Source: Diplonema japonicum (Eukaryota; Protista; Euglenozoa: Diplonemea). Taken from it: a DNA stretch of 64,000 nucleotides. A program made the position numbers and the translations under genes. The notes beneath the pieces are model-generated. The model did not search any database and was not told the DNA's origin. It saw only the letters and a program-made list of their open reading frames with translations. Of the stretch, positions 2,762-52,713 are shown one piece after another. Location of the stretch: contig OZ025699.1 of NCBI GenBank assembly GCA_964019335.1, positions 124,001 to 188,000 of the forward strand, read 5' to 3'. Positions within the stretch are counted from its first letter, which is position 1, and each line of letters opens with the position of its first letter.

Positions 2762-2902
2762 CCTCCCGAGTAGGGTGGGGATCAGTGCAGAAAAGTCGGT
2801 GAAGAAACAGAGAGGTAGGAGTCTCCTGGGGAGGATGCGAGGGAGACTAGGAGAGGGAGCATGGTCGTAGATCTGCTGCTCCCCCTGTTCTGCGGGGCCC
2901 CT

Positions 2903-5752
2903 TCAATTGGATGGACCCATGGAGGCAGAGCGCCCCTTGACCCCATTGGTGAAGAGATCTTTGGTCTCCGCGAACGACCTGGCCCGCCCCCTCGTACCCA
3001 GGTTCGTCACCGCAGCCTCAGAGGTCGTAGCGAGAGGAGGAGCCCCCTTCTTCCCCTTCCCCTTCCCTTTCCATACACTGTCGTGTGTCGTCGTCGCCCC
3101 CGGTGTAGGGTCCCGCGGCACTGCCGTTCCCGTCGTCAGCGTGGCCGCCTGCGGCAGGAGGAGGCGGAGCGTCGTCCGCAGATCGGAGATCATCTCCTGC
3201 TGAGAGTCGATCGTCCTCTGCAGCCCGACGATCGACTCCTTCAGCGTGGCGACGAGCTCAGTGAGAGCGGCGACCTCAGGCGACCCGGAAGGGACTCCCT
3301 CCTTGTTTCCCGCAGACACGTTGCGGGGCGGTGTAGGGGACGTCACAGTGTCGAGCTGGGGGGGAGCCACCGAGCTCGGTATGGACGCCCACGGGCTGGT
3401 GGGAGGAAGCCCAGTTGCTTTCACCGCAGGGCCAGTCTCCGAGGGTGTCGACGCCGATACAGGTGCCGGGTCAGGTACAGGTGTAGTAGGCGCAGGTGCA
3501 GGCACATGAGAAGATGTGGGTGCCGGGGTCGAGGACGTTGCAAGCGCAGGTGCAGATGCAGGTGTCGTCCTGTTGATGAGAGGGGGCGGCTTGACGGTCG
3601 GGTGGTCGTCCGCATCACGGAGGCAGACAAGGCGCCCCCCAAGGAGCCACGTCCTGGACTTCGGGGGCGGGCTGTCGACGACGATGAAGAACACGAGTTG
3701 CCTCGTGCCCTGGAACATCGTCTGCGTGCGTCGCAGGACGGAGGATGGTTTCCAACCGATGTGGTCCATCACTTCGTCGAAGGCCGCCCTGGTGATGGAC
3801 GGCGGGGCTCCGGTGAGCAAAAACTTGCGCTTCGTACGCAGTTTTGCGAGGGTTTCCCGGAGCCGCTGTTCCGTCTCCGGTAGGCACCGCACAGTCCATC
3901 CCTTACGGTGCGCCACCCCGAGAGACAACCCACCCAGCGTCCCCGCAATCCGATAGGCATCCGCCCTCCCTTCCGCCACGATGGGTACATAAGCGTACCC
4001 CCCGCGTCTCTCCGTCGTCCGCATTAAGCACCCGTCCCCGGACCGGCGCAGGACGGCGTGGACGTGTGCTGCTTGCAGGCGCAGTCCCACCTCGTGGGTC
4101 CAGTGCCTCGCCCGCGGTTCTTCCTCACCGAACTTCCTTGGGCGGAAGACCGCACGATCCTCCACCACCGCGCCCTGAGCCTTGGCGAGCTCCAGGACCC
4201 TGGCCTTCGCCTCCTTCAGGCTGTCTGCACTGACACAGACGTAGACGACCTCCGATCCGCTGTTGAAGGTGGAAGGCGGGGTGTAGGTGGGGGGGTCCAG
4301 CCCGAACGTGGAGACGTGGACCCTCCTGTTCACTGCGCGCGACCCAGAGACCATGACAATCTCGCTGGGGGTGGTGACACCGGGGACCTCTGTCATAAGG
4401 ACAAAGGTGATGGATGCCGTAGGTAACGCGGAGCACACGACCCCCATTTCGGAGGGATCGTCGAGCGCAATGACAGCGCGGGATGTTTCCGTCGGGGGGG
4501 ACACGTTGGTGTAGATCGGGGCGTCCCATGTGTCTGGCACCAGGTCCCATCGCGGGGTTGTGGAAGGGGCAGGGGCAGGGTCGTCCTCCATCTCCTCAGG
4601 GCCAGAGCTGGTGTCAGAGTCTGAGCTGAGGAGGAGCGTGCCTTGGTCTGTTGACGCGTTGGCGGAAGCGTTCGCGACTGCTTCGTCCTCGACCTTCTGG
4701 GCATCTGCCTTCTTGGCGGCCGCCAACCTCAAAGCTTCCTCCTTTTTGGCAGCGGCTGCGGCGGCTTCCTTTTCGGCGGCGGCGGTGGCTGCGACCTTCT
4801 TCTTCTCCTCGGCGGCGGCGGCTGCGGCTGCGGTCTCCTTCTCGGCGGCGGCGGCTGCAGCTTGCTTCCTGGCGGCGTCGGCTGCGGCCTTCCTCTCGGC
4901 GGCGGCGGCGGCAGCGGCTTTCTTCTCGGCGGCGGCCTTCTCCTCGGCGGCGGCGGCGGCTGCTGCTTTCTTCTCGGCGGCGGCTGCGGCTTTCTTCTTC
5001 TCGGCTGCAGCGGCTGCGGCTGTAGCCTTCTTCTCCTCGGCTGCTTTCATCTCGGCCGCAGCACGCGCAGCCTCCTTCTCCTCTGCCGCAAGTCGTGCAG
5101 TAGACCGCTCGCGCAGAGCCTTCTCCTCAGCCTCGACTGCTCTGCGAGCAGCCTCCACACCAGCCACGCGAGCAGCTTCCGTCTCGGCTGCCATTTTGAC
5201 AACAGCAGCATCAGCCACCTCCTGCGCAGCCTTCATCTTAGCAGCTATTTCTGCAGCTACCACGTCGGCCGACTCGCGTGCAGCTTCCAAATCAGCAGCG
5301 ATTCCCGCGAGTTCGACGTCGGCCGCAGTGCGTGCGGCTTCGAGGGGGTGTGTGGCGTCAGCTATGTGTGCGGCTTCGGCGGCAGCGTCAGCGCGCGCGG
5401 CTCTGGCGGCCTTCCTCCTAGCTTTTTTGCTGGAGGTCGGGGTGGCGACGCTGGCGTCAGGCGAAACCGGCCTTTTGACGGAGCCGGTCGGGGTGGAGGC
5501 GACAGGTGTCGCTGGGCCGGCTGTAGCGGCGGCGGCGTCGGGCGTGAGGAGGTCAATTACGGTGACCACCCCCGTCATCTTCTCCCGGTGCTCCGGCGTC
5601 AGGAGCTGCCCCAGCTCCCCGGCTGCTCCAGCGCTGCGGAGCATCCTCTCCACCCGCCGCTCCTCCCTGGCCTTGGACTGGGCCAGCTGCGTGCTGGCCC
5701 CGTTCCCTTCCGGCTTTGCCTTCTCCTTGTGCTTGTCTTTCTTCTTGCCCAT
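2903..5752 (-). CDS. A1 ORF1 (949 aa; Ala/Lys/Glu coiled-coil, central globular domain, Pro-rich region, C-terminal coiled-coil)
   Basis: ORF track; near-identical in four copies; lies upstream of the APE-RT ORF. Confidence 0.9.
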   Translation of the reverse strand: MGKKKDKHKEKAKPEGNGASTQLAQSKAREERRVERMLRSAGAAGELGQLLTPEHREKMTGVVTVIDLLTPDAAAATAGPATPVASTPTGSVKRPVSPDASVATPTSSKKARRKAARAARADAAAEAAHIADATHPLEAARTAADVELAGIAADLEAARESADVVAAEIAAKMKAAQEVADAAVVKMAAETEAARVAGVEAARRAVEAEEKALRERSTARLAAEEKEAARAAAEMKAAEEKKATAAAAAAEKKKAAAAAEKKAAAAAAAEEKAAAEKKAAAAAAAERKAAADAARKQAAAAAAEKETAAAAAAAEEKKKVAATAAAEKEAAAAAAKKEEALRLAAAKKADAQKVEDEAVANASANASTDQGTLLLSSDSDTSSGPEEMEDDPAPAPSTTPRWDLVPDTWDAPIYTNVSPPTETSRAVIALDDPSEMGVVCSALPTASITFVLMTEVPGVTTPSEIVMVSGSRAVNRRVHVSTFGLDPPTYTPPSTFNSGSEVVYVCVSADSLKEAKARVLELAKAQGAVVEDRAVFRPRKFGEEEPRARHWTHEVGLRLQAAHVHAVLRRSGDGCLMRTTERRGGYAYVPIVAEGRADAYRIAGTLGGLSLGVAHRKGWTVRCLPETEQRLRETLAKLRTKRKFLLTGAPPSITRAAFDEVMDHIGWKPSSVLRRTQTMFQGTRQLVFFIVVDSPPPKSRTWLLGGRLVCLRDADDHPTVKPPPLINRTTPASAPALATSSTPAPTSSHVPAPAPTTPVPDPAPVSASTPSETGPAVKATGLPPTSPWASIPSSVAPPQLDTVTSPTPPRNVSAGNKEGVPSGSPEVAALTELVATLKESIVGLQRTIDSQQEMISDLRTTLRLLLPQAATLTTGTAVPRDPTPGATTTHDSVWKGKGKGKKGAPPLATTSEAAVTNLGTRGRARSFAETKDLFTNGVKGRSASMGPSN

Positions 5753-5786
5753 TTTTCTTTTCTTTTCTTTTCTTTTCTTTTCTTTC

Positions 5787-5799
<13 letters not shown>

Positions 5800-5842
<43 letters not shown>

Positions 5843-5917
5843 ATAATAAATATTCCACTACCAGGCGGGAGGATCGAAGGGGAGTAGAGAAAACCAAAGG
5901 GAATGGGACATCACTTC
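5800..5917 (-). repeat. Family B 3' terminal ~80 nt plus (TTA)n/poly(A) tail
   Basis: Matches the reverse complement of about 23252-23360, including the same CCCATTCCCTTT variant. Confidence 0.9.
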
Positions 5918-8810
5918 GGAGGTCACGCCAGGGGGGGATCATGTGGTCTGCTTTAATGGGCGATGGGCCTACCGGGGTGCATTCCCTCTGCGGAGGGTCC
6001 AGGTTCTTTGCATCCCTCCTCATCCTCCCTGCCCAGGTGTCCTCGTCGAGCTCCTCAGCAAGTGCAGCAACACACCCCACTGTGTTGGACTTCCGTATGC
6101 ATTCCTCGTACAACAGCAGGGTGTCCGTCTTGACTACTGTGTCCAATTGTTGTAGTCCTGCCTCTACCACTGCTATATGTTTGGAGATCTTCCCAGGGAG
6201 CCCTGTGATAAATCTCGCCGCCGTTTCATGTAGTTCGTTCAGGTCGTCAAAAAGGTCCTTCCGCAGCGACTTGCCGTAGACCCCCAGGCCGTATCTTGTC
6301 AGTGGGAACACGTACGTTAGGTAGATCGCTCTGAGCATGTCCCTTCTCAACCCACCCTTCTTGCTGGACAGTCTGTACAAGTATCCCAAGCGCCTACGCG
6401 TCTTGTTTTTGACTTCACCCACGTGAGCCTCGAAGGACGCGTTAGCGTCTAGCGTGACCCCCAGGTACTTCGCCTTGTCTACCTGTTTCAATCCTGTCCC
6501 GTCTCCGAAAGATACCTTCAGTTTCCTCGAGACTCCGTTGCAAAGGATGTTCGATTTTTCGGGTGCCAGCTGCATCGACCACCTCTCAGCCCACTGTTCC
6601 ACCAAGTCAACAATCAGTTGTGCCTTTTTCTCGACCTCCTTGTCCTTCTTGCCTTCGACCACGACCATGATGTCATCTGCATACGTGCAAGCACGTATGC
6701 CTCGTTCTTCTAGCACTCTGGTCAGGTCATCCACATAGATGGTAAAGAGTAGAGGTGCCAGGACAGTTCCTTGAGGGACTCCCCCCTTAAACTCCCTGGA
6801 GACCCCTTGCGTGCCTTCCACCTCCACCGCCACTTTTCTCTTGCTGAGGTAGCTCTTTACCCATCTTGTGTATTCTTCGGGATATCCGTTATTCTCCATC
6901 TTTGCTATGAGTCCCTCATGCCACACCGTGTCGAAGGCCCCCTTAAGGTCCAGAAAGAGCAGACCTCCCCTTTTCCCCGTGTTGTTGTATTTGAAACCCT
7001 GTAGAGTTTTCGCAGCGAAGAGTATGTTCTCTGTGGTTGATCGGCCTCTCATGAAGCCGGATTGTGTCCAGTGTGGTGGGGTTACCTTCCTGGTCTCTTG
7101 AAGGTAGACCATCCTGCTTCTCACCACCCTCTCCATGGCTTTCGCGATGTTGCTCGTCAGGGATATGGGCCTGTAGGAGTCGGCTCTGCTCGGGTCTTTG
7201 TTGGGTTTCCTGAGTGGTCTGATTGTTGTTCTCTTCCACTCCGACGGGACCTTCCCTTCCTTCCAAGAGAGATTGAAGAGATGTTTCAGAACTTCCACTC
7301 CTTTTGGCCCCATTTTTTTGAGATATTCGTTGTAGATGCCGTCGGGTCCCGGGGCCTTTCGTTTCTTTAGCTTCGCGATCTCGCCCAGCACCTCACTCGT
7401 CGTGACTGCTTCTGCTTGTTCTTGCTGGGTCTCTCTCTTCACCTCGTTTTTTAGGGATTCCAGAGCTTCTCTAGAGGATTGTCCTATTTTCGGTGTACAT
7501 TTTGCTGCGTAGTGTTCGCACAAGGCTGTTGCTTTCGCCTTGTTACTTGCGTATCTTGTACCGTTCTCCCTGAGAACCGAGACTCCGGGTTTCGTTGCAC
7601 TCCCGTCAAGCTGCCTTATGAAAGCGAAAGTGTCTTTGGACGTTTTCTTCCTTCCCAGTTCATCCAGGAAATCTTCGTCCCTCTTTTGTTTAGAGGCTTG
7701 TATTAACTCCCTTGTCTCTTTCTGGAGTAACCTCACCTCCGCTAAGGCAACCGGATCGTCCTCGCCCTTGCTTACGTACTCCCTTAGTTTGGTGTTCCTT
7801 TCCTTTACCTTGCTGTCTATCTCAGGAGTCCACCACGCCTTAGCAGGTTTCGGCCCTTTTCTAGGTATGCTCTCCCTAGAAGCTGCCATGAGCAGGCCGA
7901 TGAGTCCCTTACTCACCACCTCCACGTCCTTGCTCTTTAGAAGGCATGATGTCCTCTCTTCTACGATAGTCCTGAATTTGCCCCAGTCAGCTTTTTCCCA
8001 TACCAGCTTCTGGGGCGGTTTTTTCCTTCCTTCCTTTTGTTGCTGTCCCACTTCCCATTCGTAGAACATGGGAAAGTGGTCGGAACCTATTGAGTCCAGT
8101 ACCCTCCACGAGCCTGGGTCATACCCCGCGTCCGTTATCATTATGTCGGTCGTGGTGAAGGTTCCTCTCGTTGAGAAGTGTGTGGGGCACTTTGGTCTGT
8201 TGAGTGGCAGCATGTTCGTCCTGACCATCCATTTCTCCAGTTCACCGCCCTTCAGGTCACTGTTCTTGGCGGTACTGTCCCACATGTCAGAGTGCGCGTT
8301 GAAATCACCCGATATCAGCACATCCTGACCAGAAGGGAGATTGGAGACTGCCAAGTCGCCTTTGACTTTCGTGGACGATGGGGGGCGGTAGATGTTGACC
8401 AAGAGCAGTTTTCTTGTTTCGGTGAGTTGTACGGATACGTCCAGTCTTTCCGTCCTGTCATCACGTTCTCCTATGAACGTCTGCTCAGCATCCAGGTCTC
8501 TCCTGACCGCCGTCACCAGACCACCTCCCCTCTTCACCTCCCCGTCCTCGTTTAGCACCACCCTGTCTCTCCTGAACAGGTTGAAGCCCGGTAGTTCGAT
8601 TTCATCCTCGGTTCTTAGCCATGATTCCTGTATCATAACCACATCAAGCTCGAGTTCTTCTATACTTTTCTCGAGCTCCACCATTTTCCCTCTCACCGAG
8701 TGTGCATTCACCGACAACACTCTCAGCTTCGGGTTGCGTGGCTGATCAGTCTTTATTTTCATGTTAGGACCGGGGTTACTCTCGACGTCTCCGCAGCTTA
8801 GGATATCCAT
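5918..8810 (-). CDS. C ORF2: 2A peptide, APE endonuclease, RT (truncated; ORF-track C-terminus is read-through into the B tail)
   Basis: MDILSCGDVESNPGP; IQESWL, GDFNAH, SDHFP; DLKGAFD, GVPQG, YADD, YLG. Confidence 0.9.
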
Positions 8811-8860
8811 CCATGTGGTCCTGTTCCTCCTCGTCGTCTGTTCGTGCTCTTGCTTGACTT

Positions 8861-9027
8861 ACCGTATTGGTCACCCCCGCACCCCGGGTTTCGGATGAAG
8901 GGTCGTACTACTTGGGGGGGGCCGGCCATAACTGACCTATCATCGCCGCCACTAACGCCTTGTCTCGCTTGGACACCCCCGTTCGGGGCCGGCCAGGATT
9001 TAGCCGCGTGTTGTAGCCAAGTAGTAC
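8861..9027 (-). promoter_or_regulatory. Conserved structured intergenic RNA (putative IRES), copy in C
   Basis: Closing stem GTACTACTTGG/CCAAGTAGTAC; homologous to 11862-12028 and 51405-51575 with compensatory changes. Confidence 0.7.
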
Positions 9028-9270
9028 CACGTCCTCGTCTTCGCTTTCTTCTTCCTTGCTTTCCGCCGTTGTTTCTCTTCGTTTATTGTTCACTTTTTTG
9101 TTTGTGGGGTTGCCTTTTCTTTTTCCCCTTTCTTGGGCTTTGGCTTTTTTTTTTTTTTAAAATCTTTTTTTTGCCCTTTTCTTTTAAGTTCTTTTGGTTG
9201 ATGCGACACTTTCTTTTTTTTTTAATCTTTTTATTTAGTTTTCTGACCTTCACTAAAATCAGGTCTTTCG

Positions 9271-10089
9271 TTAATGAGAGACTTTCTTCTTGGCGTTCAG
9301 GGGGGCTGACGGGTTTGAATGAGAGGGAGTAGTGGCCATGGTGGCTTGGCGCGAGGTCGCGTTTCCCACCTTTCTCACAGGTGTGGAGGGGAGTTCAGTT
9401 TGGGTGGGTGAGTAGTCGATGCCGGACTGAGATTCGTCCGGTCTCTCGTGGCAGTGCGGTGGTGGCTCGGGGCTTGACTCTTCTTCTTCCTCCATCCTAT
9501 TGCCTCCTGTTGTCAGGAGGAGGAGGATTTTATTATACTGGCTCGCACCAGTCTCCGTCAGCCTCCTCTCCATGGCCACCAGCCGCTCCATCTGCACTGT
9601 CGCCATTCTCTCGATGGCTTGTGCCAGGGTACCAACCTGACCTTCGACCGCTTCCACCTTACCCTGTACCTTCCCCATCTCCTCTTCCTGGGTCTCCATT
9701 CTTGACTCCAGGTGCCTCAACATCATTTCCTCTTCCTCCCCCTTCTCTTCCTTCTCCGCTAGTTTCCTCTCCATCACCTCCAGTCTCTCCATCAGCGCCT
9801 TCAGCTGCTCCCCGCTTTCTCCGTCTGTCGCCTTTTTTTCTTCCTTATCCTTCTTTCTCTTTTCCTTTTTCTCTTCCTCTTTCTGTTTTATGTCCCTGTC
9901 CCTGACACCAGCCGCACACCACAGTTCCCACCAGACACTGTTTCCGAAGAACCTACGGAACTCTATCGCCGTAGCCTTCCTCTTTGTCTTGCCCCCCGGC
10001 AAGGACCTCCTGTAGTCCAGCAGACCCCCCGTTTGCACAAGGAGGTGCACAGTCTGCTCGATCTCACCCAGCTTCACTTCCAACTTCAC
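9271..10089 (-). CDS. C ORF1 (coiled-coil; 5' part degenerate)
   Basis: FRRFFGNSVWWELWC resembles FLAHYGEKTGWSLYK and FLEFYGRSVGWQLYC of the B ORF1s; followed by an E/K-rich coiled-coil. Confidence 0.7.
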   Translation of the reverse strand: MKLEVKLGEIEQTVHLLVQTGGLLDYRRSLPGGKTKRKATAIEFRRFFGNSVWWELWCAAGVRDRDIKQKEEEKKEKRKKDKEEKKATDGESGEQLKALMERLEVMERKLAEKEEKGEEEEMMLRHLESRMETQEEEMGKVQGKVEAVEGQVGTLAQAIERMATVQMERLVAMERRLTETGASQYNKILLLLTTGGNRMEEEEESSPEPPPHCHERPDESQSGIDYSPTQTELPSTPVRKVGNATSRQATMATTPSHSNPSAPLNAKKKVSH

Positions 10090-10405
10090 AGAGGGGGGAG
10101 GGGCTTCAGCTCTGTTGGCACCAATGGTGCCGTCAAACCTTAAAAGCTTCCCCCATCTGATCTCGCTGAGAATTGAAGCTACCAGCTACAGGATGGGGAC
10201 ACAGCTACGTCTACATAGAGGCATTTAGTTCTTGTCGTCGGGGTCGGTGGCGTGGGGTCAAGTGTCAGGGTTATCGGGGGCTGGTCTTCGCCGGCGCCTT
10301 TCGCGCCGCCCAGTGGGGACCTCGTGGAGGTGCCAGCTTCCTTCTGCTTATCAGACATTTCTTTTTTTTTTTTTTATTGTCGTGTAAGCGTTCCCACCTT
10401 AAACC

Positions 10406-10628
10406 TTTTTTTTTAATAATAATAATAATAAATATTCCACTACCAGGCGGGAGGATCGAAGGGGAGTAGAGAAAACCATTCAAGGGAAAGGGAAAGGGAA
10501 AGGGAAAGGGACATCACTTCAAACCAAGAGAGGTGTTTGAAAGTGATTCGTGAAAAGCAGTCTCTGTTACTGAGCCATTGGTCGAGGGGTCCTGGTCCGC
10601 TGCTCCCTGTTGTAAATTACTTGGACCC
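10406..10628 (-). repeat. 5'-truncated family B 3'-tail fragment with poly(A)
   Basis: Matches about 46590-46795; homology stops at 10628. Confidence 0.9.
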
Positions 10629-11499
10629 GGTAGATGGATTCTTAGCCCACTACGGGGAAAAGACGGGGTGGAGCCTCTACAAGGAGGCTGTCGAGGACTG
10701 GAAACAGAGAAGGGCTCCACCTCCTCCTTCCGCCCTAAAGTCGAGAGATCCTCAACAACAGCAGAGCCCAGAACACTTAAAGGTTCTGGAAGAGCTACGG
10801 GGACAGCAGCAGGTGCTGCAACAACAACTGCAGATGCAACAGCAACAGCTGCAGCTCCAACACCAGCACCAACAGCAACAACCTCCGGACCAAGACAAAA
10901 TCCTGGAAATACTGAAGGGGCAGCAGCTACAACACCAGCAGCAGCAGCAACAACACCAGGAGCAGGTGCAACAATTCCAGCAGCAGCTACAAAAACAACA
11001 ACAACAACACCAGGAGCAGGTGCAGCAATTCCAACAACAGCTGCAGAATCAGCAGCAGCAGCTACAAAAACAGCAGCAGCAACATCAGGAACAGCTACAG
11101 CAACAGCAAGTAGCACACCAGGAGACGGTGAAGGGTCTCCTGGAGCTGGTAAAACAAAGCCAGCAGCAGCTGAAAAAGGACACCTCGGTGATCCAAAAGA
11201 CGCTGCACCAGTTATCACTGGGAAAAAAAAAAAGAAAAACCGCCACAGACCCCGACCAGCCCACGGTAGCCCTGCAGGACCACCCCCTCTCTCTTACGGA
11301 GTCGGAGACCGAGCAGGAGGAAACCCCATTAGGGGCGAGAAGGAGGAGGGTGCCCGAGATGCTAGAGCATCAATCGTCGAGGGAGACCCCCTACAAAACG
11401 CCGGAGGGCAGGGGTTCGGCAGGTACTGCCGAAAAGACAATCATGTCTACGAACGGGAGGAAGAAAGGCGGGAAAGGTTCCAAAGGTGTAAAGAAATAG
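10629..11499 (+). CDS. B1 ORF1 (5'-truncated; Gln-rich coiled-coil)
   Basis: FLAHYGEKTGWSLYKEAVEDWKQRR is homologous to the B2 ORF1; polyQ repeats. Confidence 0.75.
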
Positions 11500-11861
11500 T
11501 GTTAGTAAAAAACAAAAAAAAAAGAAAGTGTTTTCCCTTCCCTTTACAAATTCACAAAGCCCCACCCCCCCATTACGTCATACCCCATAAAAAAAAAATA
11601 AAAAAAATAAAAAAAAAATAAAAAAACAACATAAAAAAAAAAAAAAATTAAAAAAAAAAACAAACAAAAAAAAAAACATAAAGAACATAAACGAGCTAAA
11701 AAAAAAAAAAAAAACAACAACAAAAAAAAAAAAGAAAAACCAAAAGAAAAAAAGTTGTCAAAAGAAAAAAGGAGGACAACAACAGCAACAAAAACAACAA
11801 CAACAACAACAACAACAAGAGGTCTGCAGAACAACACAAGCACTTTGCACAAGAGAAGTAT

Positions 11862-12028
11862 GTACGACTTGGCTACTTCCCGCGGTCGAATCCTGGCCGG
11901 CCCCAACCGAGGGTGTCCACGGGGGACAAGGCGTTAGTGGTGGCGACGAGAGGTCTGTTAGGGCCGGCCCCCCCCAAGTCGTACAACCCTATCTTCGAAG
12001 ACCTGAAGGTAGGGGTGACCACATAGGC
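11862..12028 (+). promoter_or_regulatory. Conserved structured intergenic RNA (putative IRES), copy in B1
   Basis: GTACGACTTGG...CCAAGTCGTAC stem, multibranch core, 3' hairpin CCCTATCTTC/GAAGGTAGGG. Confidence 0.7.
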
Positions 12029-12100
12029 AGTGCGTTGTTCTTGCAGTACCGACCTTCGACGGCCGCTTCAATGAAGAAGAGAAGATCCGGACCACATGGG

Positions 12101-12148
12101 ATGGATATCTTGAGATGCGGCGACGTCGAACAAAACCCGGGGCCAGCC
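12101..12148 (+). other. 2A (StopGo) peptide at the start of B1 ORF2
   Basis: Translates MDILRCGDVEQNPGPA, fitting the D(V/I)ExNPGP consensus. Confidence 0.85.
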
Positions 12149-12150
12149 GT

Positions 12151-15100
12151 TGGTGGGGTGACTGAAATGGTTTTAAGTTAGGATGAAGAAGCGAAGAAAT
12201 AGATAAAAAGGGGTGGGAAAGAATAAATACTGCATACGAAAACAGAGAGTCGAGTAAAAAAGGGAAAAGGTGACTGACATCCTCAAGAGGAGCCTCCCAC
12301 GTACCAGGAATTAAGCAGAGGTTGCTTCCATGGCCCGTATCAGTCTATCGCCAGAAAGAATAATGAAAATAACATAACAAAGAGAAGGGGAGAAGAAACG
12401 GAAAAAGACGGCTTGGTCATCAGAGAATGTTGACCCAAATGTGTCGGCGGACGCAGTTTAACGTCATACCCGGGACGGAAACCATGTTGGGAAAGCAGAA
12501 GGGAAGTTAAGAGTCAAGAAGTGGAAAAGGAAAAGGTGGAAACTAAAATCATAGGGTGCGAGGTCTGTGAGACCCTGCATAGCCTATCGCCCTCGTAGCA
12601 CGCCGGGCCGGCACTCCTACATTGCGTAGGGTCGTCTCCAGTAGTTCCTAGTTGTAGGAGTTCAGCACAGTCGACCACTGTGACTCGCTGTAGTAGAGGG
12701 TCCCTGCCCCCACGAAGTCAGCGAGTAGGGCTGCCACAGTCGGATACGACTTGTCCTTGAACCCTTGGGTCTGCAACCGAAAGCCCTGTTCCTGGCGGGA
12801 AGCGTAGAGCCACGTCGAGTCATAACAGACCAGCAGACACGGGATCGCGACGCGTGTGTCGAGGGGGACCGTGACCATGGGGGTCTCACCCAGGAAGTGT
12901 GTGCAAGCCCTGGACATGCAGCTGAGGTCAAAGACGGCCTCGCCCTGGGAAAGGAAGCCCAGGTGTCGAAGCTCATCCAGGTCCTCAGGGCCGTCGACGT
13001 CTGCTTCCCTGGTGAGCCTCTTAAGGGCGACAAGTCCAGTGACTCTGGTGTTCGGCCTCGTCGCGGCGAGATCCCGTTTGGCCGCGGGAAGGGCGGGGCC
13101 GTCTTCGGGTTCCGGGCGTTTGTTCCTCTCCCCGTTGTAGGTGAGCAGGAGAGGGGTCCTCCCTGGAGTCCTAGTCTCGTCACCTCTTGGGGCCTCGGAA
13201 CCGAAGAGTGGGTGTTTCCAGCCGCCTTGGGCGAAGAACTCCGACCACCACTGTTGCTGTACCGCGGTGTTCAGCCCCGAGTGCCATTCGTGAGACAACC
13301 GAAGACGTTCGGTGGTAGGCAACGCCTTGTGCGCAATCAGAAGAAGCTGTTCCTGGTTGGCGACGGTTGCCTGTTGGTCGGCAGTTCTATCCGTGTCACG
13401 GGCCTCGAGCAGCAGTTGATGTGGAGAGGTGTCCAGGTGCATCGGGAGGGGACCGACCGACAGGAGCTGACGCTGGTGTTCGTCCAAGAGCTCCGGGTGT
13501 CGCCGGAAGTAGACCAAGAGACTGAGGTATCGATCCATCCGTCTCTGGAGGGCCCTTCGGTTGAGGGCTTCCTGATCAAAACCCTGTGACTGCTCGCGCA
13601 GGATGAGAAGATCCCCATCGCCTGTGGAGGAACTCTTACCACGACGGCTTTCGTGCTCGTAAGCAGTGCCGTCGTGCTTCTTCTTGCGCGAGGGTCTGTC
13701 CGGGGAGTCCTGCGTGAGGTCGATCATTTCTAAACCACCATCCGCCTGGTGAGGGTCTAGGGGAGCGTCTGCCTCGGCTCGGGCCACGGGCGGCTCCAGG
13801 GTCAGCGTCGTGTCTCTCTGGGCGTTGACCACCGGTTGAAGCGTCGCGTGTCCCATGGCGGGAGCCATCGGCGTATCCATCCCGAGTCCGATGTTCTCAT
13901 GGACGGACTGGATGCAAGGAGTGAGCTGTACCTGGCGGGCGCCGAGGGGGGCGTCTGCCAGAACGGGCGTTGTCACGGCTCGGGCGAGCGATGACTCCGC
14001 AGCCGACGTTGTCACAATCTGGGAGCCGACCACTGGTTGGAGTGTCGCGTGTCCCATGGTAGACGACGGCATCGGTGTGTCACTCCCGTGTCCGGTGTCC
14101 CGACGGGTGGACTGAGTGCAGGCCGCGAGCTGGGTGGATGACACGTCCGTTGGCGGTGGAAGGCATGGTGTCAACCGAGGCTCAGTAACCAGCCGCCTCG
14201 ACAGGGTCGCGCGGGGCGTCGGAATTTCGACAGACTTCGTAAGTCTGACCGCCGCGGCCGAGGGCGACCCCAGTCCGGCGTCCATCGGGGGCAGTCTACT
14301 GCTGGGAGGATCCGTCTGGAGCGTCGATGATATCGAGAACAGTACAGGTGCTGTGACACGGTCCGTCTGACAGGTTGCGACTGCTGTCTGTGGTGTAGAC
14401 TTGTGCAGACTCGAGACCTTCAGGAAGAGCGGGACAGTTCCGACCACGTTAGTCTGGCTTGCCGTAGACGTGGTGGTGACAGAGCATCCGGTGTGCACGG
14501 CTCGCGCGGCCACGGCGGCAGCTAGGGCTACGATGGCGGTGGCGACGGGCCGCCCGAAGTGAGCGGTGTGCGCATCCACACCTGATGCGGCGACTCCTGT
14601 GTCGAGCCGTCGGGTGCGTGCGGCATATGCAGCTATAGCTGCAGCTAGGGTGACATAAGTTAGGAGGGTGCGATCTTCCGGGGTGTTGAGAGCGGTCTCA
14701 GTCTTTCGCGCGCTCGAGTCGCTTACCTGGGGTGCCGCCGGGGTGATGACCGGCTCAAACTGGCGAAACTCAGCCTCAGGGTCTAGAACACGTGTGTTGT
14801 GTTTCCTGCCTGGGGTTGTCCTGGCCCACACATCGTCTGGGATGCAGAGGATGTTGTGTTCGGAGTATGTCGCGCAGATGTGTTTGAAGCTCTGGAGCCT
14901 TAGCCGTACGTCGGTGTCTTTGACCATGTACCTTCCCTTCTTCCTGAGAGCGATGAACCAGTGGCCGCTGAGACTTCGTTTCAAGGGACCAACGATCAAG
15001 CAGGGGCTTTCTTTCATGCCCGCACGGAAGACCTCCAAGTTTGCACCAACGACCATGAGGCAAGCACGTGACAAGGTCGAGCGGGAAAAGTTGCCAAGAG

Positions 15101-18100
15101 GATCGGGCGCTTCATCAGTGCTGGAAGGGGAGATGAGTCGTGAGAAGCCGTGGTACATCTCCTGGATCTCCTGCATTGTAGAGAAGGGGATGCGGTCCAC
15201 ACCAGCATAGTCCGCCAACCAGTTTATGACGGCCCAGCCGCATTCCAGGCCCAGGCGACCTTCCCCGCTGTTGGTGTGCAGGTTGATGGGGGGCGAAAAA
15301 ACCTGGTCCGTGACACCAGATGGTGAGACCACGGAGGCTGCTCGGGGTTGTGACGGTTCGACAAGACCTGAAGAGCTGTCCGAGGAACTGTCCGAGGGCT
15401 CGTCTGAGGGGCCCCCCGAGAAGGCGACTGAGGAGACGACTGAGGAGTCAGCTGAGGAGTCGTCCGAGGAGTCGTCCGTGGGAAGCGCACGGGGTTTCTT
15501 GGGGCCTATGTACGTTTTTTCCGGCAACCAAGAATCTACCGGGGCTTTGGCGTCGTATCGGTGGAGGACTTGCGTGAAGAAGGCCAGCAGGTTGCTTTTC
15601 TCCATGGCGAAGCGTCGATCCACGCGTTCGATAAGGAAGGCGTTGTACGCTTTCCGCAGGCCGCCCTTGTCGTGACCGCGATCTAGGAGCAGGTAGATCA
15701 CTGAAGCGATCTCCCGTTTGAGGTCCGCGATGTTGTTGGTCAGGGCGCAGGCACGGATGACCATGCCCTTGAAGATGCCTGGTCCCTGGGTGGTGGGCGC
15801 CGCGGTGTGCCCGTGGGTGAACCGCGTAGGCCGGAAGCGCCAGTTCTGCGCCTTATCGTTAATGCTAAGTCTAATATAGTTGTGCTTAGCTTGTTCGTGG
15901 CGCTCTATCCGGATGCGAATCCCGATAAAGGGGACGTCGCATGGGTCTGAAGAGGTCTTTACATAAGCCATGCCATAAAGCTCCTCCGGGGGTGGCGCAG
16001 TGCTCCACAACAGGAAGTCGTCGATGTAGCGACACGCGTTGCAGTAGCGTTTCAAGGTCTCCCAGTCCTCTTCGGCGAGGAGCTTGTCGATGTATGCGGC
16101 CTCCACGGCGTAGCAGAACAGGTTCGCCAGGTCGGGGGAGGCGTTCCCACCCATGGGGATACCCTTTACTTGACGAACGGCGCGGCCACCCTGCACAACA
16201 TAGGTGTTGTCAACGACGAGGTCCAGGAGCTTATGGATCCGTTCCGGGGTGTAGACATCGTCCTCGTCGGCATCTGTGAAGGAGCTCCCGTCCTTGCCAC
16301 GGGTGAGGTTCTTGCCGGTGAAGTCGAACGCTTCTTGGACTGCTTTACGAACCCCCTCTTTCAGACGCCCTTGGTCGAGGTTGGTGTACATGTCCCGGAA
16401 GTCGTACGTGGCAGGGGACAGGCTTTTGTAAGCCGTGTACTGCTGCTTGATATCCGCAGCTACGTTCTCGGCCGAGTCGACGATCCAGTACCGCTTTAGT
16501 CGGATACCGTCGGGACCGTGGGTCTTGGACCTGCCCTCCAGATCCTTGTCCAGCAGCGCGCGTTGGACAGCCTTCAGGAGGGAAGACAGTTCTAGATGGA
16601 GGGCCGTGGTGGCAGCTGTGGGTTTCTTAGCTTTATTGCCCGTTGTATCGCCGCCTGCTGCGACCAAGTTCTCCATAATTTCCTGCGTGCTGACCGCTGC
16701 TGGTTGGTCCACAGGGGGTGCATCAGTGGAGGAGACACCAGAGATCCACCTGACGCCCACTTTGTCTTTGTGTAGCTTCAGGGTACCGTACAGGTATGGC
16801 ATGCGACGTGTGGAATCGAGGTTGAAGGTCTTGGCTTGATCAGCTATTTCGGAGAAGATCGAGTCCAAGGGCTTCGAGACCGGCTCGAAAGCTTGGCTAT
16901 CAAGCTGTTGGTGCAGGATCCTGAGGTAGTGATCCTTGCAACAGACGCCAATGTCGTGGGTGCTTTTGTCTATGGGGAGGAAAACGTAGACCTCCTGAAG
17001 TTTACGGAGCTTTGTCTTGATGAACTCCGGGACTGAGGGGTCGAAGACCGGAGACTGAGTGTGGGGGTGGAGAAGGTTCTGTGCCTTGGCGAGGAGGACC
17101 TTCCGGAAGGAATCCTTTTTCACTGCAGGGGATCTCCGAAAGTTCTGAGTGATGAACCCGTTGATGTCCTCCTCGAGACTTTGGGAAGAGAGGAGGGCGT
17201 GTGTTGAGAGGCGGAACTTCATGCCTCTGTTCAGAACCTCCTTCACTTCGTCGTCATCGATGACCTCTGCTGCTAGTCCGCAGGCGTGTCCCTCATGTGT
17301 GTGTGAGGTCTTGCGCTTCGAGCAAGGGCAGTTTGTTGTAGGCTCGGCCGCTTCTGGACGCGGGGTCTCGATGCTGAGCTTCGTCACATTGCACACTGTG
17401 GCCTTGAGGGTTTGACCAAGCTTGTTGCACATGTGTACTCTGCGAAGGAGGGCTGGCTTGGGGCATGCCGCAATTACCTCCTTGTCCTCGAAGACCTTAC
17501 GCCAGAGGATCATCTCCTTGGCCTTGTGGTCAAAACTCGTTTTGAACCACACGAAGCCTTCGTCTCGGCGGACCACCTTTTTCAAGAGGGCAGGGCTGAG
17601 GCGGTTGGTGAGGCCTCGTTCGATAGCCGCGATCTTGGCGGTGAAGAAGTTCCCGACGAAGTAACGTCTCAGGAAGTTCAGGTACCTGAAGACGGTCTTG
17701 GGGGCCCAGGTAGTGAAGTCGTAGTTCAGCACATCGGGGTGTGCACACATCGCGGTGATCTTCATACACAGGGACTTGTAGTTGGACCCAGTAGCCTGGA
17801 TCGACAGCTCCCCGTCGTCGTTCAGCCGTATCGAGGGAGCGGTAGATCTGGTGGGGGTGTTGTTGGGGTTCGAAGGGGACGTAGTAGTGTTGCTGCTGGG
17901 GTCCTGTTTGGCATTCGAGCGCCCCTGGTGTTGGTGTCGCTGCTGTTGCTGCTCGCGTACCGTCTTAGGTTTACGTTTCGTGTTGCGGCGGCGACGGGTC
18001 TGCGTCTTAGCAAACCTACCACGCATGTTAAGGGAGCAAGCCAGCCTATTGATGTACTGGTTCTCCCTGGGGATCGCAACACGACGGAAGGACTTGGCGT

Positions 18101-18608: not shown

Positions 18609-21600
18609 GTGAGGAACGGGTGGCTCAAGATAGTCTCACTCAACGTAAGGTCCCTCAGAGCTAGGAAGGCCGAAATAGAGAGGGCTATCGATGAAATGGC
18701 GCCGGACATCCTGTGTCTCCAAGAGACACACCTTACATCAGACGATGACATGCATGGATGGTTCGACGGGTACAAAGCCTTTCGGAGGGACAGGACGAGG
18801 CCGAGAAGAAGAGGATTCCCCATTAAGGGCGGCGGCTTGTTGACACTCGTGAAGGAAGGCATCAGCGCCAGCAGGGTTTCAGCGAAGGAGAGCAGGGACG
18901 TGACAGAGAGGCTGGACGTGAAGATCTACCCACCGGGACAGAAAGAGATTCTCCTAGTGAACATTTACCTCCCACCGACATCACCGTCAGATCCCAGCGA
19001 TGACAGACCTGCCATCGACTCATACTTCAACCCGTACTCACTTCCTACTGGAGACAATACCCTGATCATGGGGGACTTCAACGCCCATCACCCACTGTGG
19101 GATGGAAGGAAGAAAAAAGAAGACCCTATAGGAAGCAAAATCGCAGCGTGGATGGTCGATAAAGGGATGAGACCCTGGAACGACAGATATAAGCCCACAC
19201 TCCTTAACACAAGAGGGACACTATCCTCGCCAGACTTGGTTATAAGCGGACCTGACATGGAATCTACATCCTGGACAACCCTAGAGTCATGGGGTTCCGA
19301 CCACATTCCCATGTCCATCGAAATCAGAACCAAGTTTGAAGTCAAGACGACAGAAAGGAGATTCTGCTTCAAAAAAGCGGATTGGGCTGGCTTCAGGGAT
19401 TATCTTGAGCACGCCCTAAGGCACCTGCAGAGAACAGGTGACCCCGTGAAATTGAACAAACAGTTCACGAACGCGATCAAAGAAGCCGCCAGGCTCTTCA
19501 TACCGAGAGGTGGAGCAAGAGGTGGGAAAGCGTGGTGGACAGAAGAACTAACGCAGTTAGTTGCTCAGCGGAACGCTCTGAAAAAGGAGATAATGTCAGA
19601 CATTGGCATCCCCTCGACTGAACAGTGCGAAAGACTCGGAGAAATCAGCCGACAAGTGCAGGAACAAATCGTCGTAGGAAAGAAAAGAGCGTGGGCTGAG
19701 TACACGAAGGAATTGTCACAGAAGAAAGACCTGGGGCATGCTTTCAGGACGATAAAGACGCTCGATGGTAGGAAGGGCAAAGAACCTGTGGCGCCGCTGA
19801 TGGCTGGTGAAAGATTACACACCACAGCGACAGAGAAGGCAGACGCACTGGTGGACCACTACGCGGAGGCATTTGCACCGCAACTGAACAAGGACACCAA
19901 GAGAATGCTGGAAAGAGTAGAACGACTAACCAAGGAAAACGGTGGTCGGAATAACAGGACCGAGTGCCCCGATATAAGCATCGACGAATTGAAGTACGCA
20001 CTGAGGCAACTTAAAAAGGGGAAGTCCCCAGGCCCTGACGGTGTGTACAACGAGATGTTAAAGCACCTCGGGGAAACGGCCCTGGACGCGATGCTGCATC
20101 TCTTCAATATGTCGTGGGAGAAGGGTGTAGTTCCGTCGGATTGGAAATACACACACATCGTCCCGCTCTTCAAAGGCAAAGGAAAGCTGAAGAGCGAACC
20201 GGCATCGTACAGGCCGATCTCATTAACCTCGGGAATTTCAAAGACAATGGAGAGGATAGTGAAGATCAGGATCGACTACCACCAAGACGTGGGCGATGTA
20301 AAGAAGGTTCACAAAATGCAGTCAGGTTTCAGGAAGGGGCGTTCCACTGAAGAGAACGTCTTGCAGGTTACAACGAAACTAGATCGCATCAGAGGAGACG
20401 AGTTCTGCGGGGGTCTCCTGCTCTTTGACCTGAAAGGGGCTTTTGATACAGTCTGGCATAAAGGCCTGAACGCAAAGCTGAGATACAGCAAGTACCCGCA
20501 GAGGATAACGAACTGGGTCGCTGCCTTCCTGGACCAAAGGGTTGCAGCCGTCAAGGTGGACGGCAAGATAGGGAAACAAAGGCAGATAAAAGGAGGGGTT
20601 CCACAGGGGACGATCCTGGCTCCGACCCTCTTCTCATTATATATGGACGACCTGTCAGCGATTTTCGCAAAGGAGGGAATTGACGCTGTGATGTACGCAG
20701 ACGACATCGCGGTGGTGGTTCATGAGAAAGATGTTGAGAAACTGAACGAGAAGCTGTCGAGGGTCCTGAGGATCGTGGAGACTTGGTGTTCCTGGAACTC
20801 GATGGTGATATCAAAAGACAAGACAGAGTTCTTGCCAGTAGCGGGCATCTCATATCCCCAAAGGACCCTAAAAGGGAAGATATCGGCAACCTTTGCGGGG
20901 GGGGAAGAGCTCAGGGTAGTTGAAAAAACAAAGCTGCTCGGAGTCACGTTTGAGGAAGACATGTTTTTCGCCGCACATACGGCAGACGTCTTGAGAAGGG
21001 CGGAAAGCAGAGTCAGGCTACTGAGAAGACTGGCAGGGACGAAGTGGGGTTGCAAGAAAGTGGTAATGAGGGCACTCTACCTCACGTACGTACAGCCAGT
21101 TTTCCGTTACTGTCTGGGGGCGTACGGACCTTTCGTGATAGGCGGGAGGGGCACGTACCACGAAGGAATCCAGAAGCTGCAGTACCGGGCAGCTTTAACG
21201 ATCACAGGATGTGTAGCGACATCAGAGACATTCGCTACACTAAACGAGGCTGGCTTGTGGACACTCGATGCGCTGATCGAACACGACAGTTTACTGCTGT
21301 ACGAGTCCATCATTAGGAAGGAGAACACAGCTGCCTTTCAAGCTACACAACCCCTGAAGGATCTGACCAGATACGAGGTACTGTTCCCGAAGAAAACATG
21401 GTCAGATCGACAAAGGGAAGCAGCCAGGGCCTACAAGCTCCCAGAGAGAGCGGCAACACCATTCTCAGGTTATGCCTTTGAGAAGAAGTACAGAGTTACA
21501 CCTTGGCAGAGATTCGAGGGTAAACTGATACTGGCCCCCTTCCTCGACATACATGTGAAGAGATCGGACACCAGTGAAGTCAGAAGGAAAGCAACAGAGG

Positions 21601-22481
21601 ACACTCTGAACGGGCTTATCGAGAAGCACGGAAAAGCCTTCTGCATGATCTTCACAGACGGGTCATTGAAGGACGGCAGGAACGGAGGAGCTGCTGCGAT
21701 ACTGTTGCGAGGGGAGAGAAAAGCTTCGTATGGGGTCAGCGGTGGATCCTATACGTCATCCTACAGGTGCGAGCAAAGGGCCATAGAGCTGGGGCTGCAC
21801 CTCGCGACAAACCTCTCGAAGAGAGTGGGCACGAGCCAAGAGATGGTCCTTATTTGCACTGATTCGCAGTCGGTAATAAGGAGGATGTGCCAGGGGCACC
21901 TGTCCGCTGTCTCTGCAGACGAGTACAAACTGTGGCACGAGGTAGCGGGACTTGTAAAGAGAGGCCACAAAGTGGTCATACAGTACGTACCAAGTCACTG
22001 CGGATTCAAATGGAACGAGATGGCGGACAAGAAGGCGAAGGAGACCTGCCGGGCAGTTGCCCACGAACAGAAGACCAGCATAGACATCGTGAAGTCACTG
22101 GTGAGAAAAAAGGTACTGGCGAACCACCTCCTCTTCTGGAAAAAAACGGGTGTCAAGGAGACATACCGAGAGCTTTTCGCAGGGAATTTCGAGAAGTTTG
22201 AAGAGTTAAACAGGGAACAAGAAGTTGCGATCATGAGGCTGAGAGTGGGGAAGAGCCCCCTCATAAGCGGGTATCTACTCAATCCCCCGGCCGATGTGGT
22301 CACATGCCACCTTTGTTCGATGCCTCAGACGCTGAGCCACCTCCTGAAAGAATGCCAGGACGATGGTAGAGCTGACCAGAGAAGTCAGATCTTCGGTTCC
22401 TCCCTTCCTTCGCTCAAGGCCCTACTGTCAACTGACGCCGGGAAAACCGTACAATTCCTGGAACAGCAGGGCCTGTTGTGA
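18609..22481 (+). CDS. B1 ORF2: APE endonuclease, RT, RNase H, C-terminal CCHC motif
   Basis: CLQETH, GDFNAH, SDH; DLKGAFD, GVPQG, YADD; FTDGS, CTDSQS, VPSHCG..NEMAD; CHLC..H..C. Confidence 0.95.
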   Translation: MRNGWLKIVSLNVRSLRARKAEIERAIDEMAPDILCLQETHLTSDDDMHGWFDGYKAFRRDRTRPRRRGFPIKGGGLLTLVKEGISASRVSAKESRDVTERLDVKIYPPGQKEILLVNIYLPPTSPSDPSDDRPAIDSYFNPYSLPTGDNTLIMGDFNAHHPLWDGRKKKEDPIGSKIAAWMVDKGMRPWNDRYKPTLLNTRGTLSSPDLVISGPDMESTSWTTLESWGSDHIPMSIEIRTKFEVKTTERRFCFKKADWAGFRDYLEHALRHLQRTGDPVKLNKQFTNAIKEAARLFIPRGGARGGKAWWTEELTQLVAQRNALKKEIMSDIGIPSTEQCERLGEISRQVQEQIVVGKKRAWAEYTKELSQKKDLGHAFRTIKTLDGRKGKEPVAPLMAGERLHTTATEKADALVDHYAEAFAPQLNKDTKRMLERVERLTKENGGRNNRTECPDISIDELKYALRQLKKGKSPGPDGVYNEMLKHLGETALDAMLHLFNMSWEKGVVPSDWKYTHIVPLFKGKGKLKSEPASYRPISLTSGISKTMERIVKIRIDYHQDVGDVKKVHKMQSGFRKGRSTEENVLQVTTKLDRIRGDEFCGGLLLFDLKGAFDTVWHKGLNAKLRYSKYPQRITNWVAAFLDQRVAAVKVDGKIGKQRQIKGGVPQGTILAPTLFSLYMDDLSAIFAKEGIDAVMYADDIAVVVHEKDVEKLNEKLSRVLRIVETWCSWNSMVISKDKTEFLPVAGISYPQRTLKGKISATFAGGEELRVVEKTKLLGVTFEEDMFFAAHTADVLRRAESRVRLLRRLAGTKWGCKKVVMRALYLTYVQPVFRYCLGAYGPFVIGGRGTYHEGIQKLQYRAALTITGCVATSETFATLNEAGLWTLDALIEHDSLLLYESIIRKENTAAFQATQPLKDLTRYEVLFPKKTWSDRQREAARAYKLPERAATPFSGYAFEKKYRVTPWQRFEGKLILAPFLDIHVKRSDTSEVRRKATEDTLNGLIEKHGKAFCMIFTDGSLKDGRNGGAAAILLRGERKASYGVSGGSYTSSYRCEQRAIELGLHLATNLSKRVGTSQEMVLICTDSQSVIRRMCQGHLSAVSADEYKLWHEVAGLVKRGHKVVIQYVPSHCGFKWNEMADKKAKETCRAVAHEQKTSIDIVKSLVRKKVLANHLLFWKKTGVKETYRELFAGNFEKFEELNREQEVAIMRLRVGKSPLISGYLLNPPADVVTCHLCSMPQTLSHLLKECQDDGRADQRSQIFGSSLPSLKALLSTDAGKTVQFLEQQGLL

Positions 22482-23326: not shown

Positions 23327-23381
<55 letters not shown>

Positions 23382-23416
23382 GGAAAGAAAAGAAAAGAAA
23401 AGAAAAGAAAAGAAAA

Positions 23417-51404: not shown

Positions 51405-51575
51405 GCCTTTGTGGTCACCCCTACCTTCAGGTCTTCGAAGATAGGGTTGTACGACTTGGGGGGGGCCGGCCCTAACAGACCTTACGTCGCCACCACTAAC
51501 GCCTTGTCCCGTTTGGACACCCCTATACGTGCGGGGCCGGCCAGGATTTAGCCGCGAGTTGTAGCCAAGTCGTAC
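51405..51575 (-). promoter_or_regulatory. Conserved structured intergenic RNA (putative IRES), copy in B2
   Basis: Homologous to 11862-12028; stems conserved, loops variable. Confidence 0.7.
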
Positions 51576-51815: not shown

Positions 51816-52713
51816 TTAATAGGGAAACACTTTCTTTTTTCTTTTTTTTTTCTGCAGGGGTTGGATGCTGGTCTGGACGGCTGCCAGTCCTTCCCCCTGC
51901 TTCAGCACCGCCTCCCCTTGCGCACTGACCTGTTTCTGCAGGGCCGGGTAACTGGACTGTGCTTCTGCCAGAGACGTCCTCTGTCTCTGCAGTTCCTCTC
52001 TCTGCGCGGTGATCTCCTGTCTCTGCGCCGAGAGTTCGGCCCTCTGTGCCGCAACTTCTTGATGCAGATTCTGCATCTGGGCTACCATATCTGGCGAGAT
52101 TGTTGCCTGTTGTTGCTGTTGTTGGGGGGGCTCCTGTGTGTTTTTTTGGGGTGTGGCGGTCCTCTTCCTCCACTCTTCTACTGCCTTGCAGTAGAGCTGC
52201 CACCCTACCGACCGGCCGTAGAATTCCAGAAATTCTTCTGGGCTGTACCTGTCTTGGTGGACTTTTGTTCTTTTTTTTTTTTCTTCCCCCTTCCTCGACC
52301 ACTTCTTCCCTCCTGCAGCCCTGGACTCCAGGGGGTCGGCCACCTTTATCGCCGGCAGGACTTCTGCCGTGGCGCCGTTCACCTTGATGCAGGTGTGGTG
52401 GGGGGGGGTGCGTGCGGTGTAGAGGAGGAAGGACGCGCCGCGCCTTCCGTCGTCAGGATACGACCTTCTCGGTCTGCTCTGAGACCGTTGCTGCGAGAAT
52501 CGCAGCTGCGCCCTTCTCCTCCACTCCCTTCGGCAGCGGACCGATGATCCAGTTGCCCTTCCGCACCTCGTCCTTCTTCTCCTTCTTCTTCTCTTCCTCT
52601 TCTTCGAATACCAGATTTAACTCTGGCATCGCCGCGGCTTCTTCGTCCACCTGCATCTGCAGGCTGTCCAGTGGGGGCCTCGTGGAGGCGTCCGCGCTGG
52701 TCTGCTGATCCAT
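51816..52713 (-). pseudogene. B2 ORF1, frameshifted (52453-52713 plus 51816-52382), C-terminus shortened
   Basis: FLEFYGRSVGWQLYCKAVEEWRKR motif followed by a Q-rich coiled-coil. Confidence 0.65.

Follow-up and report, generated by a model that had tools for sequence, protein, structure and literature searches.

Three diverged LINEs of Diplonema japonicum carry, between their two open reading frames, an RNA of about 167 nucleotides (nt) that is genuine, uncatalogued, unusually conserved and predicted to fold, and that sits in one Diplonema LINE family. Our preferred reading, to which we assign a probability of roughly 0.35, is that this RNA may be an AUG-based initiation element, or switch, for ORF2. 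It would set the site and frequency of ORF2 initiation, probably using an AUG that lies 40-75 bases downstream and not a pseudoknot that mimics tRNA. The three copies lie in a window of 64 kb, by which we mean the whole stretch of DNA analysed (contig OZ025699.1, positions 124,001 to 188,000), and it is densely filled with retrotransposons. The host elements, here called B1, B2 and C, are organised alike: ORF1 is followed by an A-rich spacer, the RNA, a linker of 51-73 nt and a frame encoding 2A, APE, RT and, in B1 and B2, RNase H. In B1 and B2 one frame carries APE, RT and RNase H behind an N-terminal 2A; C is cut short ahead of RNase H. A preliminary description had placed the RNA in these three elements, and all three copies are confirmed there, with the following parts.

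10629..11499, plus strand: B1 ORF1, in which a reversed fragment from the 3' end of a B-type element (10406-10628) takes the place of the 5' part
11500..11861, plus strand: B1 A-rich spacer
11862..12027, plus strand: B1 RNA, with closing stem 11862-11872/11974-11984, a multi-hairpin core, a 3' hairpin from 11987 and a candidate 3-bp pseudoknot ending at 12027
about 12150-18615/18635, minus strand: insertion directly behind the B1 2A codons, with a 1,995-codon frame and weak GIY-YIG and RT matches (Penelope-like)
18616..22481, plus strand: remainder of B1 ORF2 (APE, RT, RNase H), severed from its own 2A by the insertion
9271..10358, minus strand: C ORF1, with a frame break near 10185; its AUG is preceded by an A-tract and AG
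9028-9270, minus strand: C A-rich spacer
8862..9027, minus strand: C RNA, the most diverged copy and the source of all double changes
5919..8810, minus strand: C ORF2 (APE, RT), its 3' end truncated where other elements begin
47409-52713, minus strand: B2 element, with intact ORF2
51816..52713, minus strand: B2 ORF1, with a frame break in the window
51576-51815, minus strand: B2 A-rich spacer
51406..51575, minus strand: B2 RNA, with a 4-nt insertion in one hairpin loop
47409..51332, minus strand: B2 ORF2, intact (2A, APE, RT, RNase H)

The three elements are related throughout. Their ORF1s are homologous (E 4e-9 and 5e-5); that of B1 carries a short motif common to all three, followed by a Q/E/K-rich stretch. 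ORF1 has no Pfam match at the curated cut-off and no usable Atlas match. The RT regions form one clade with support of 99/99 in a tree of 15 rows, from which 8 of the 23 chosen rows were dropped when a motif search did not find the active site, and which takes in no named ingi/L1Tc sequence. ORF2 proteins are 77% identical between B1 and B2 and 36-38% identical between the B elements and C. The N-terminal 420 residues of B2 ORF2 are identical to a EukProt Diplonema japonicum transcript protein, and a near-identical transcript protein reads through the B2 ORF1 frame break. A protein search with the corresponding 420 residues of C returned five distant proteins and no C-type transcript.

The RNA is sharply set off from its surroundings. 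A 20-nt core pattern matches three times in the window against 0.01 expected, and a covariance-model scan of the window found no fourth copy, the next match scoring 10.5 bits (E 0.1). The copies are 166-170 nt long and agree pairwise at 130, 151 and 138 of 167 positions; B1 and B2 are 90% identical, and identity is still 78-83% where the ORF2 proteins have fallen below 40%. Of the 171 columns of the RNA, 127 are invariant; the count is 9 of 45 in the sequence upstream of it, 9 of 61 for the linker and 31 of 50 for the 2A codons. The Rfam search proposed in the preliminary description was run: nothing appeared at the RNA in a whole-window scan to E 1, and local scans of each copy gave nothing better than E 3.9, so the RNA matches no Rfam family. 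An rRNA fragment, a tRNA, a snoRNA or another known RNA was rejected, having no Rfam support. Pattern scans for distant copies gave three matches in viral contigs and three in metagenome contigs, all six in unrelated coding sequence, and protein-led searches of viral and prokaryote contigs yielded no locus. A related 2A-bearing element in the window, A0, is without the RNA. We found no published description of it in a literature search that covered few subscription papers. The earlier proposal of a conserved, structured cis-element that is absent from Rfam and placed to act on ORF2 is thus supported.

The predicted fold is recovered in part. The 11-bp closing stem given in the preliminary description has pairing probabilities of 0.96-0.98 and one double change, and the 3' hairpin shows two double and three single changes. 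The GGCCGGCC inner stem proposed alongside it can form in all three copies, but its eight pairs never vary and its probability is 0.81, 0.00 and 0.26. In an alternative core fold, each half of this stem pairs locally instead; of the hairpins so formed, one shows three one-sided changes and another a double change. The two core folds are mutually exclusive and both fit all three copies; they lie 3-7 kcal/mol apart, and their rank changes between copies. Two overlapping folds of this kind would explain why many paired bases are invariant. On the sense strand, the local-hairpin structure has double changes in 5 of 52 pairs with 98.7% of cells pairing, a result reached by none of 500 shuffles, although the structure was drawn from the same three sequences used to test it. 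Because B1 and B2 are alike, all double changes stem from one split, and shuffle counts are not to be read as probabilities. Folding stability is unexceptional (z -1.1, -1.3 and -2.0). A fold of the antisense strand was rejected: the sense strand is better in all three copies (by 3.5, 13.8 and 7.9 kcal/mol), and G-U pairs favour it. A MITE-like inverted repeat was also rejected, as the inner helices and the 3' hairpin covary too and the position is fixed.

Downstream of the RNA, the three copies converge on a start codon and a 2A-like motif, and a strand of the RNA core is able to pair over that codon.

11910..11919, plus strand: B1 core strand able to pair over the shared AUG
12071, plus strand: B1 upstream in-frame AUG
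12089..12110, plus strand: B1 invariant block of 10 nt that includes an out-of-frame AUG, followed by the shared in-frame AUG at 12101
12122..12145, plus strand: B1 2A-like motif DVExNPGP
8970-8979, minus strand: C core strand able to pair over the shared AUG
8810, minus strand: C shared in-frame AUG, with no in-frame AUG upstream of it
8766-8789, minus strand: C 2A-like motif
51514-51523, minus strand: B2 core strand able to pair over the shared AUG
51359 and 51392, minus strand: B2 upstream in-frame AUGs
51332, minus strand: B2 shared in-frame AUG
51288-51311, minus strand: B2 2A-like motif

The RPST, GPH and D-V-E-x-NPGP peptides read by the preliminary description are all present, and the DxExNPGP core of 2A is found in 3/3 copies. 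The shared ORF2 AUG lies 51-73 nt behind the RNA in each copy. It does encode the single shared Met, as claimed, but in-frame AUGs upstream of it in B1 and B2 had been overlooked. Counted to the 2A skip site, the shared AUG gives 14 residues, and the upstream AUGs give 24 in B1 and 23 or 34 in B2; 2A is reported to span 18-23 residues (bioRxiv 10.64898/2026.06.17.732966). A non-AUG start is not needed in B1 and B2, since these in-frame AUGs give full-length 2A peptides. The GPH codons are nucleotide-identical in all three copies (10/10 columns), including C, where they are out of frame, which makes an RNA or DNA motif likelier than a peptide; the block looks like a nucleotide motif preceding the AUG.

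The 10-bp helix between the core strand and the bases of the shared AUG is the longest RNA-to-downstream helix (127 columns) that can form in all copies, and it contains three one-sided changes. It was noticed first, in a list of helices formable in all copies, and tested afterwards, when none of 300 column shuffles and a single one of 300 block shuffles reached it. Among downstream positions the AUG site ranks 8 of 592, 2 of 551 and 6 of 595, in the top 1.4% in each copy. By a rough estimate the helix has a net energy close to zero (+4.5, +3.1 and -2.6 kcal/mol). ViennaRNA cannot predict the helix alongside the closing stem because the helix would cross that stem. The GGCCGGCC fold partly releases the core strand and the local-hairpin fold engages it, an arrangement that suggests a switch at the start codon.

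In an AUG-based mechanism, ribosomes ending ORF1 would not easily cross 240-360 A-rich bases and the fold, and the RNA would recruit ribosomes for ORF2 on a two-ORF RNA. The local-hairpin fold would leave the AUG region free; in the GGCCGGCC-stem fold the released core strand would pair over the shared AUG and close the start. The 2A peptide would then strip a short, variable leader, and the endonuclease domain would always start at the same proline. Several observations point this way. All copies stand at 51-73 nt from the shared AUG, in one clade that has kept homologous ORF1s, and the RNA is far more invariant than the linker behind it. Sense-strand covariation with two near-equal folds, the AUG helix, and the invariance of the 10 nt ahead of the AUG also fit, as do in-frame AUGs that yield peptides of 23-34 residues, within or above the 2A range. 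The start of LINE ORF2 past long spacers has been called open, with a suggested internal ribosome entry site (IRES) (PMC3894237). On the other side, three sequences provide one informative split, and the structure comes from the same data; the AUG helix is post hoc and close to energetically neutral. C is without an upstream in-frame AUG, and the 14 residues from the shared AUG alone fall short of a typical 2A. The ORF1 and ORF2 proteins belong to separate Trinity clusters, a plain initiation element does not predict the read-depth peak described below, and A0, related and 2A-bearing, does without the RNA. Termination-reinitiation at the ORF1 stop was rejected, given spacer stops in the relevant frames and a gap of 460-600 nt. 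A bolder version is improbable in our estimate: that the RNA represents a new class of internal-ribosome-entry RNA in a cellular retrotransposon, with direct ribosome binding, a fold switch or a +1 AUG-free start, coupling to 2A, and a stable RNA that builds up to levels far exceeding those of its host transcript.

The preliminary description had modelled the RNA on a dicistrovirus-type intergenic (IGR) IRES, in which a 3' pseudoknot would mimic an anticodon-codon pair, ORF2 would start without an AUG, and 2A would trim the leader. In dicistroviruses this pseudoknot, PKI, has about 5 bp, and Rfam includes a cripavirus IRES model. The 3-bp H-type pseudoknot proposed here is present and contains one double change, but it is equalled in 2-6% of 2000 column shuffles. 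The ORF2 frame is indeed open and indel-free from the pseudoknot to 2A in B1 and B2 (a chance of about 0.3 each), but it is the +1 frame of the pseudoknot; in C the 0 frame opens on UAA, and the apparent 1-nt slip noted earlier is present. In type 6 IRESs, PKI mimics an anticodon-codon pair with the first codon right behind it, PKII involves L1.1 motifs, type 6d members measure 161-168 nt, and +1-frame starts are possible at a lower level (PMC10275262). An IGR-type start would gain from the length of our RNA, which resembles type 6d, from the double change and the open frames, and from the tolerance of +1 starts, since restoring one base in C would put all three copies in +1; 2A is moreover too short from the shared AUG alone. 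Against it stand the brevity of the pseudoknot and a 0 frame that is not ORF2 in B1 or B2 and is stopped in C. The helix list of the three copies holds no supported nested PKII/PKIII of type 6 layout; by eye, L1.1b-type motifs are absent and a single L1.1a-like 5-mer lies only 3' of the last hairpin. The ORF1 stop is 240-360 nt upstream of the RNA, and B1 and B2 possess in-frame AUGs. With a short pseudoknot out of register with ORF2, no domain-1 loop motifs and AUGs at hand, a tRNA-mimic, AUG-free start is poorly supported, and we regard it as very unlikely.

The RNA and the viral IGR IRES are alike in lying between two ORFs, in length, in a 3' hairpin with a possible pseudoknot, and in the open frame behind it. 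The Diplonema RNA differs in its 3-bp pseudoknot, in an ORF2 that is off the 0 frame, in having no domain 1/2 pseudoknots or loop motifs, and in its available AUGs and the long spacer in front. The predicted order of its parts (basal stem, arm with a three-hairpin junction, side hairpin, pseudoknot, AUG) resembles domain III of HCV-like IRESs. Hallmarks of these type 4 IRESs are a GGG apical loop in IIId, a GAYA tetraloop in IIIe and an AUG close behind the pseudoknot. In contrast, our RNA is without a GGG apical or GAYA loop (its side-hairpin loop is GUUA), its AUG is 51-73 nt from the pseudoknot, and it has no Rfam match. A dicistrovirus-like IGR IRES in LINEs was raised as a possibility in 2013, with no example given (PMC3894237).

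Two further sets of data bear on how ORF2 is expressed. As the preliminary description stated, A-rich spacers separate ORF1 from the RNA; they measure 243-362 nt and are 56-63% A, with an AG 30-32 nt ahead of the RNA in all three copies. In contig data from four sequencing runs, summed depth over B2 in run X5 is 186,603 in the RNA bin, 1,101-16,536 in ORF2, about 1,400-2,500 in ORF1 and 113,540 in the 5S bin. Run X13 gives 86.6 in the RNA bin against 0-23.8 in ORF2 bins, and X2 gives 130 against 29-62 in ORF2 and about 82 in ORF1. Depth in X1 is flat (3.7 at the RNA against 4.2-5.0), and a single contig of 4,592 nt spans the RNA. A peak on the RNA, seen in 3/4 runs for B2, the one element covered, is a weak hint, as summed contig depth is a poor measure that cannot rank the parts of a gene; the runs were retrieved with a stretch that includes the RNA, and none of those listed is on record as RNA. 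If X1 is DNA and the others RNA, as the depth profiles would have it, this hints weakly that the level of the RNA lies well above that of its host transcript. The transcript proteins of B2-type ORF1 and ORF2 fall in different Trinity clusters, which says little because the low-complexity spacer would break assembly anyway. Excision of the RNA as an intron or circle has no support, there being no joint across it among the 8 listed in the contig data, although contigs cannot demonstrate that such joints are absent.

ORF2 may instead be translated from its own spliced-leader-capped mRNA, with the spacer as splice-acceptor and polyadenylation signal and the RNA as a 5' leader that damps translation or limits cutting of the full-length RNA. 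A trans-spliced ORF2 mRNA was the refuting case named in the preliminary description, and it gains weight because A-rich tracts precede D. japonicum 3' splice sites: the base found most often ahead of the 3' splice sites of introns in this species is A (PMC12621601), and in D. papillatum essentially all mRNAs carry the spliced leader (PMC10161547). With such tracts ahead of its putative acceptors, ORF2 might own a capped mRNA and need no internal entry, which counts against an AUG-based entry element. The AG before the RNA fits this account, as does the A-tract plus AG that the ORF1 AUGs of C and A0 follow. However, the published tract concerns cis introns and not trans-splice sites, AG is frequent in purine-rich spacers, and C is there without CAG or UAG. 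Contigs from three runs match the genome straight through the B2 CAG at 51606-51608, and no leader-like loose end was seen among 24 of 165, judged by eye against the leader sequence and with the upstream repeat masked. On balance we consider a separate capped mRNA the main rival, though unlikely.

The depth peak would be better explained if the RNA were the counterpart of Pr77 of L1Tc/ingi, that is, an internal promoter, an end-forming structure (self-cleaving or nuclease-blocking), or both, which yields an abundant short or subgenomic RNA; ORF1 would then have been added upstream of an ingi-like unit. By analogy, the ingi order is kept (conserved hallmark, short leader, 2A, APE-RT-RNase H), and Pr77 RNA is described as abundant, poorly translated and unspliced (PMC3383444). 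The peaks in X5, X13 and X2 agree with this, and so highly conserved a primary sequence is in keeping with catalysis or protein binding. Yet there is neither an Rfam ribozyme match nor a hammerhead core, and a relaxed descriptor of the HDV-like ribozyme, a nested double pseudoknot (P1-P4) with a catalytic C, matches the sense strand once in B1, never in C and once in B2, at different places. ORF1 is upstream in 3/3 copies, which counts against efficient mid-element cleavage because cleavage would tend to lose it, and the depth evidence is subject to the flat X1 profile and the retrieval by a stretch that includes the RNA. We therefore hold a Pr77-like role to be unlikely. Still less probable is a role in which the RNA serves to bind the ORF1 or ORF2 protein of its own element, for particle assembly, cis preference or second-strand steps, and does not act directly on initiation. 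Its confinement to one clade would fit, and R2 protein is reported to bind a pseudoknotted RNA (PMC12222951). However, an RNA 78-83% identical beside proteins only 36-38% identical is more readily reconciled with a conserved host partner or catalysis than with a protein that co-evolves, and the invariant block and the AUG pairing would be left unexplained.

The AUG-based reading has parallels in other LINEs. Mammalian L1 and silkworm SART1 are alike in that RNA features govern the ORF2 start on a two-ORF RNA. The Diplonema elements differ in their gap of 460-600 nt, a discrete conserved fold, and 2A. An IRES of mouse L1 is reportedly the subject of a published paper. For ORF2 of L1 and SART1, reinitiation has been proposed, at short or overlapping stop-start junctions (PMC5972666). 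L1Tc/ingi are likewise euglenozoan LINEs, in which a conserved structured RNA lies a short way ahead of a frame for 2A, APE, RT and RNase H. Pr77, however, is 77 nt long, HDV-like and at the 5' end of the element, whereas the Diplonema RNA is 167 nt long, not HDV-like, and inside the element behind ORF1. An IRES with a tRNA-like fold has been proposed for L1Tc (PMC3383444), and ingi anatomy has been described (PMC12278014). According to PMC3894237, 2A within LINE ORF2 is an established finding, Ingi-clade elements reportedly have no ORF1, few LINEs are reported to combine ORF1 with 2A, and it is not settled how two-ORF LINEs translate their second gene when a long spacer intervenes. Were the bolder version, a new class of internal-ribosome-entry RNA, to hold, LINE ORF2 initiation behind long spacers would become directly testable. 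The RNA is compact and sharply bounded and surpasses in conservation the enzyme encoded behind it; in this lineage, trans-splicing normally makes nearly all mRNAs monocistronic. Whether it proves to be an IRES, a start switch, a leader attenuator or an end-forming RNA, it would in every case be an uncatalogued structured RNA family.

The neighbourhood offers further observations on these elements. C has a perfect 5' splice-site hexamer, GUAAGU, at 8857-8862 (minus strand) that overlaps the end of the pseudoknot, and about 20 nt behind the pseudoknot of B1 there are a pyrimidine-rich run and CAG; each feature is unique to its copy. B2 sits between a 5S rRNA gene (46392-46585) and two tRNA genes (52778-52891; anticodons read Asp and Asn); targeting of Pol III genes is possible. 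The window contains four occurrences of the B-family 3' end (5839-5917, 10406-10628, 23144-23330 and 46590-46795), each with a terminal (ATT)n-poly(A) tail and often with another element directly behind. At 53496-53584 there is a near-perfect inverted repeat of about 33 bp in an AT-rich repeated region; its MIR1523 match is far below the cut-off.

A0-type LINEs occur as tandem copies at 30832-38244, 23333-30597 and 38493-45908 (plus strand) and at 576-5836 (minus strand). Their ORF1 stops at UGA, and ORF2 continues in the same frame for 58 codons before a non-canonical 2A-like GLVETNPGP, with an AUG 10 codons ahead of that motif; readthrough or reinitiation is possible. P0002, a D. ambulator protein that groups with A0 in the RT tree (92/74), has two tandem 2A-like motifs with a Met six residues ahead of each core, and the start of its endonuclease domain is duplicated. 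In a further element, D (54723-59270, minus strand), a Cys-rich frame runs into UGA and is followed by 42 in-frame codons without an AUG, GVEPHPGP and APE-RT. With no AUG between the stop and APE, expression would call for readthrough or initiation at a non-AUG codon, unless the UGA arose by mutation. A homopolymer near 59237 that has slipped by 1 nt suggests that errors of this kind occur in the assembly.
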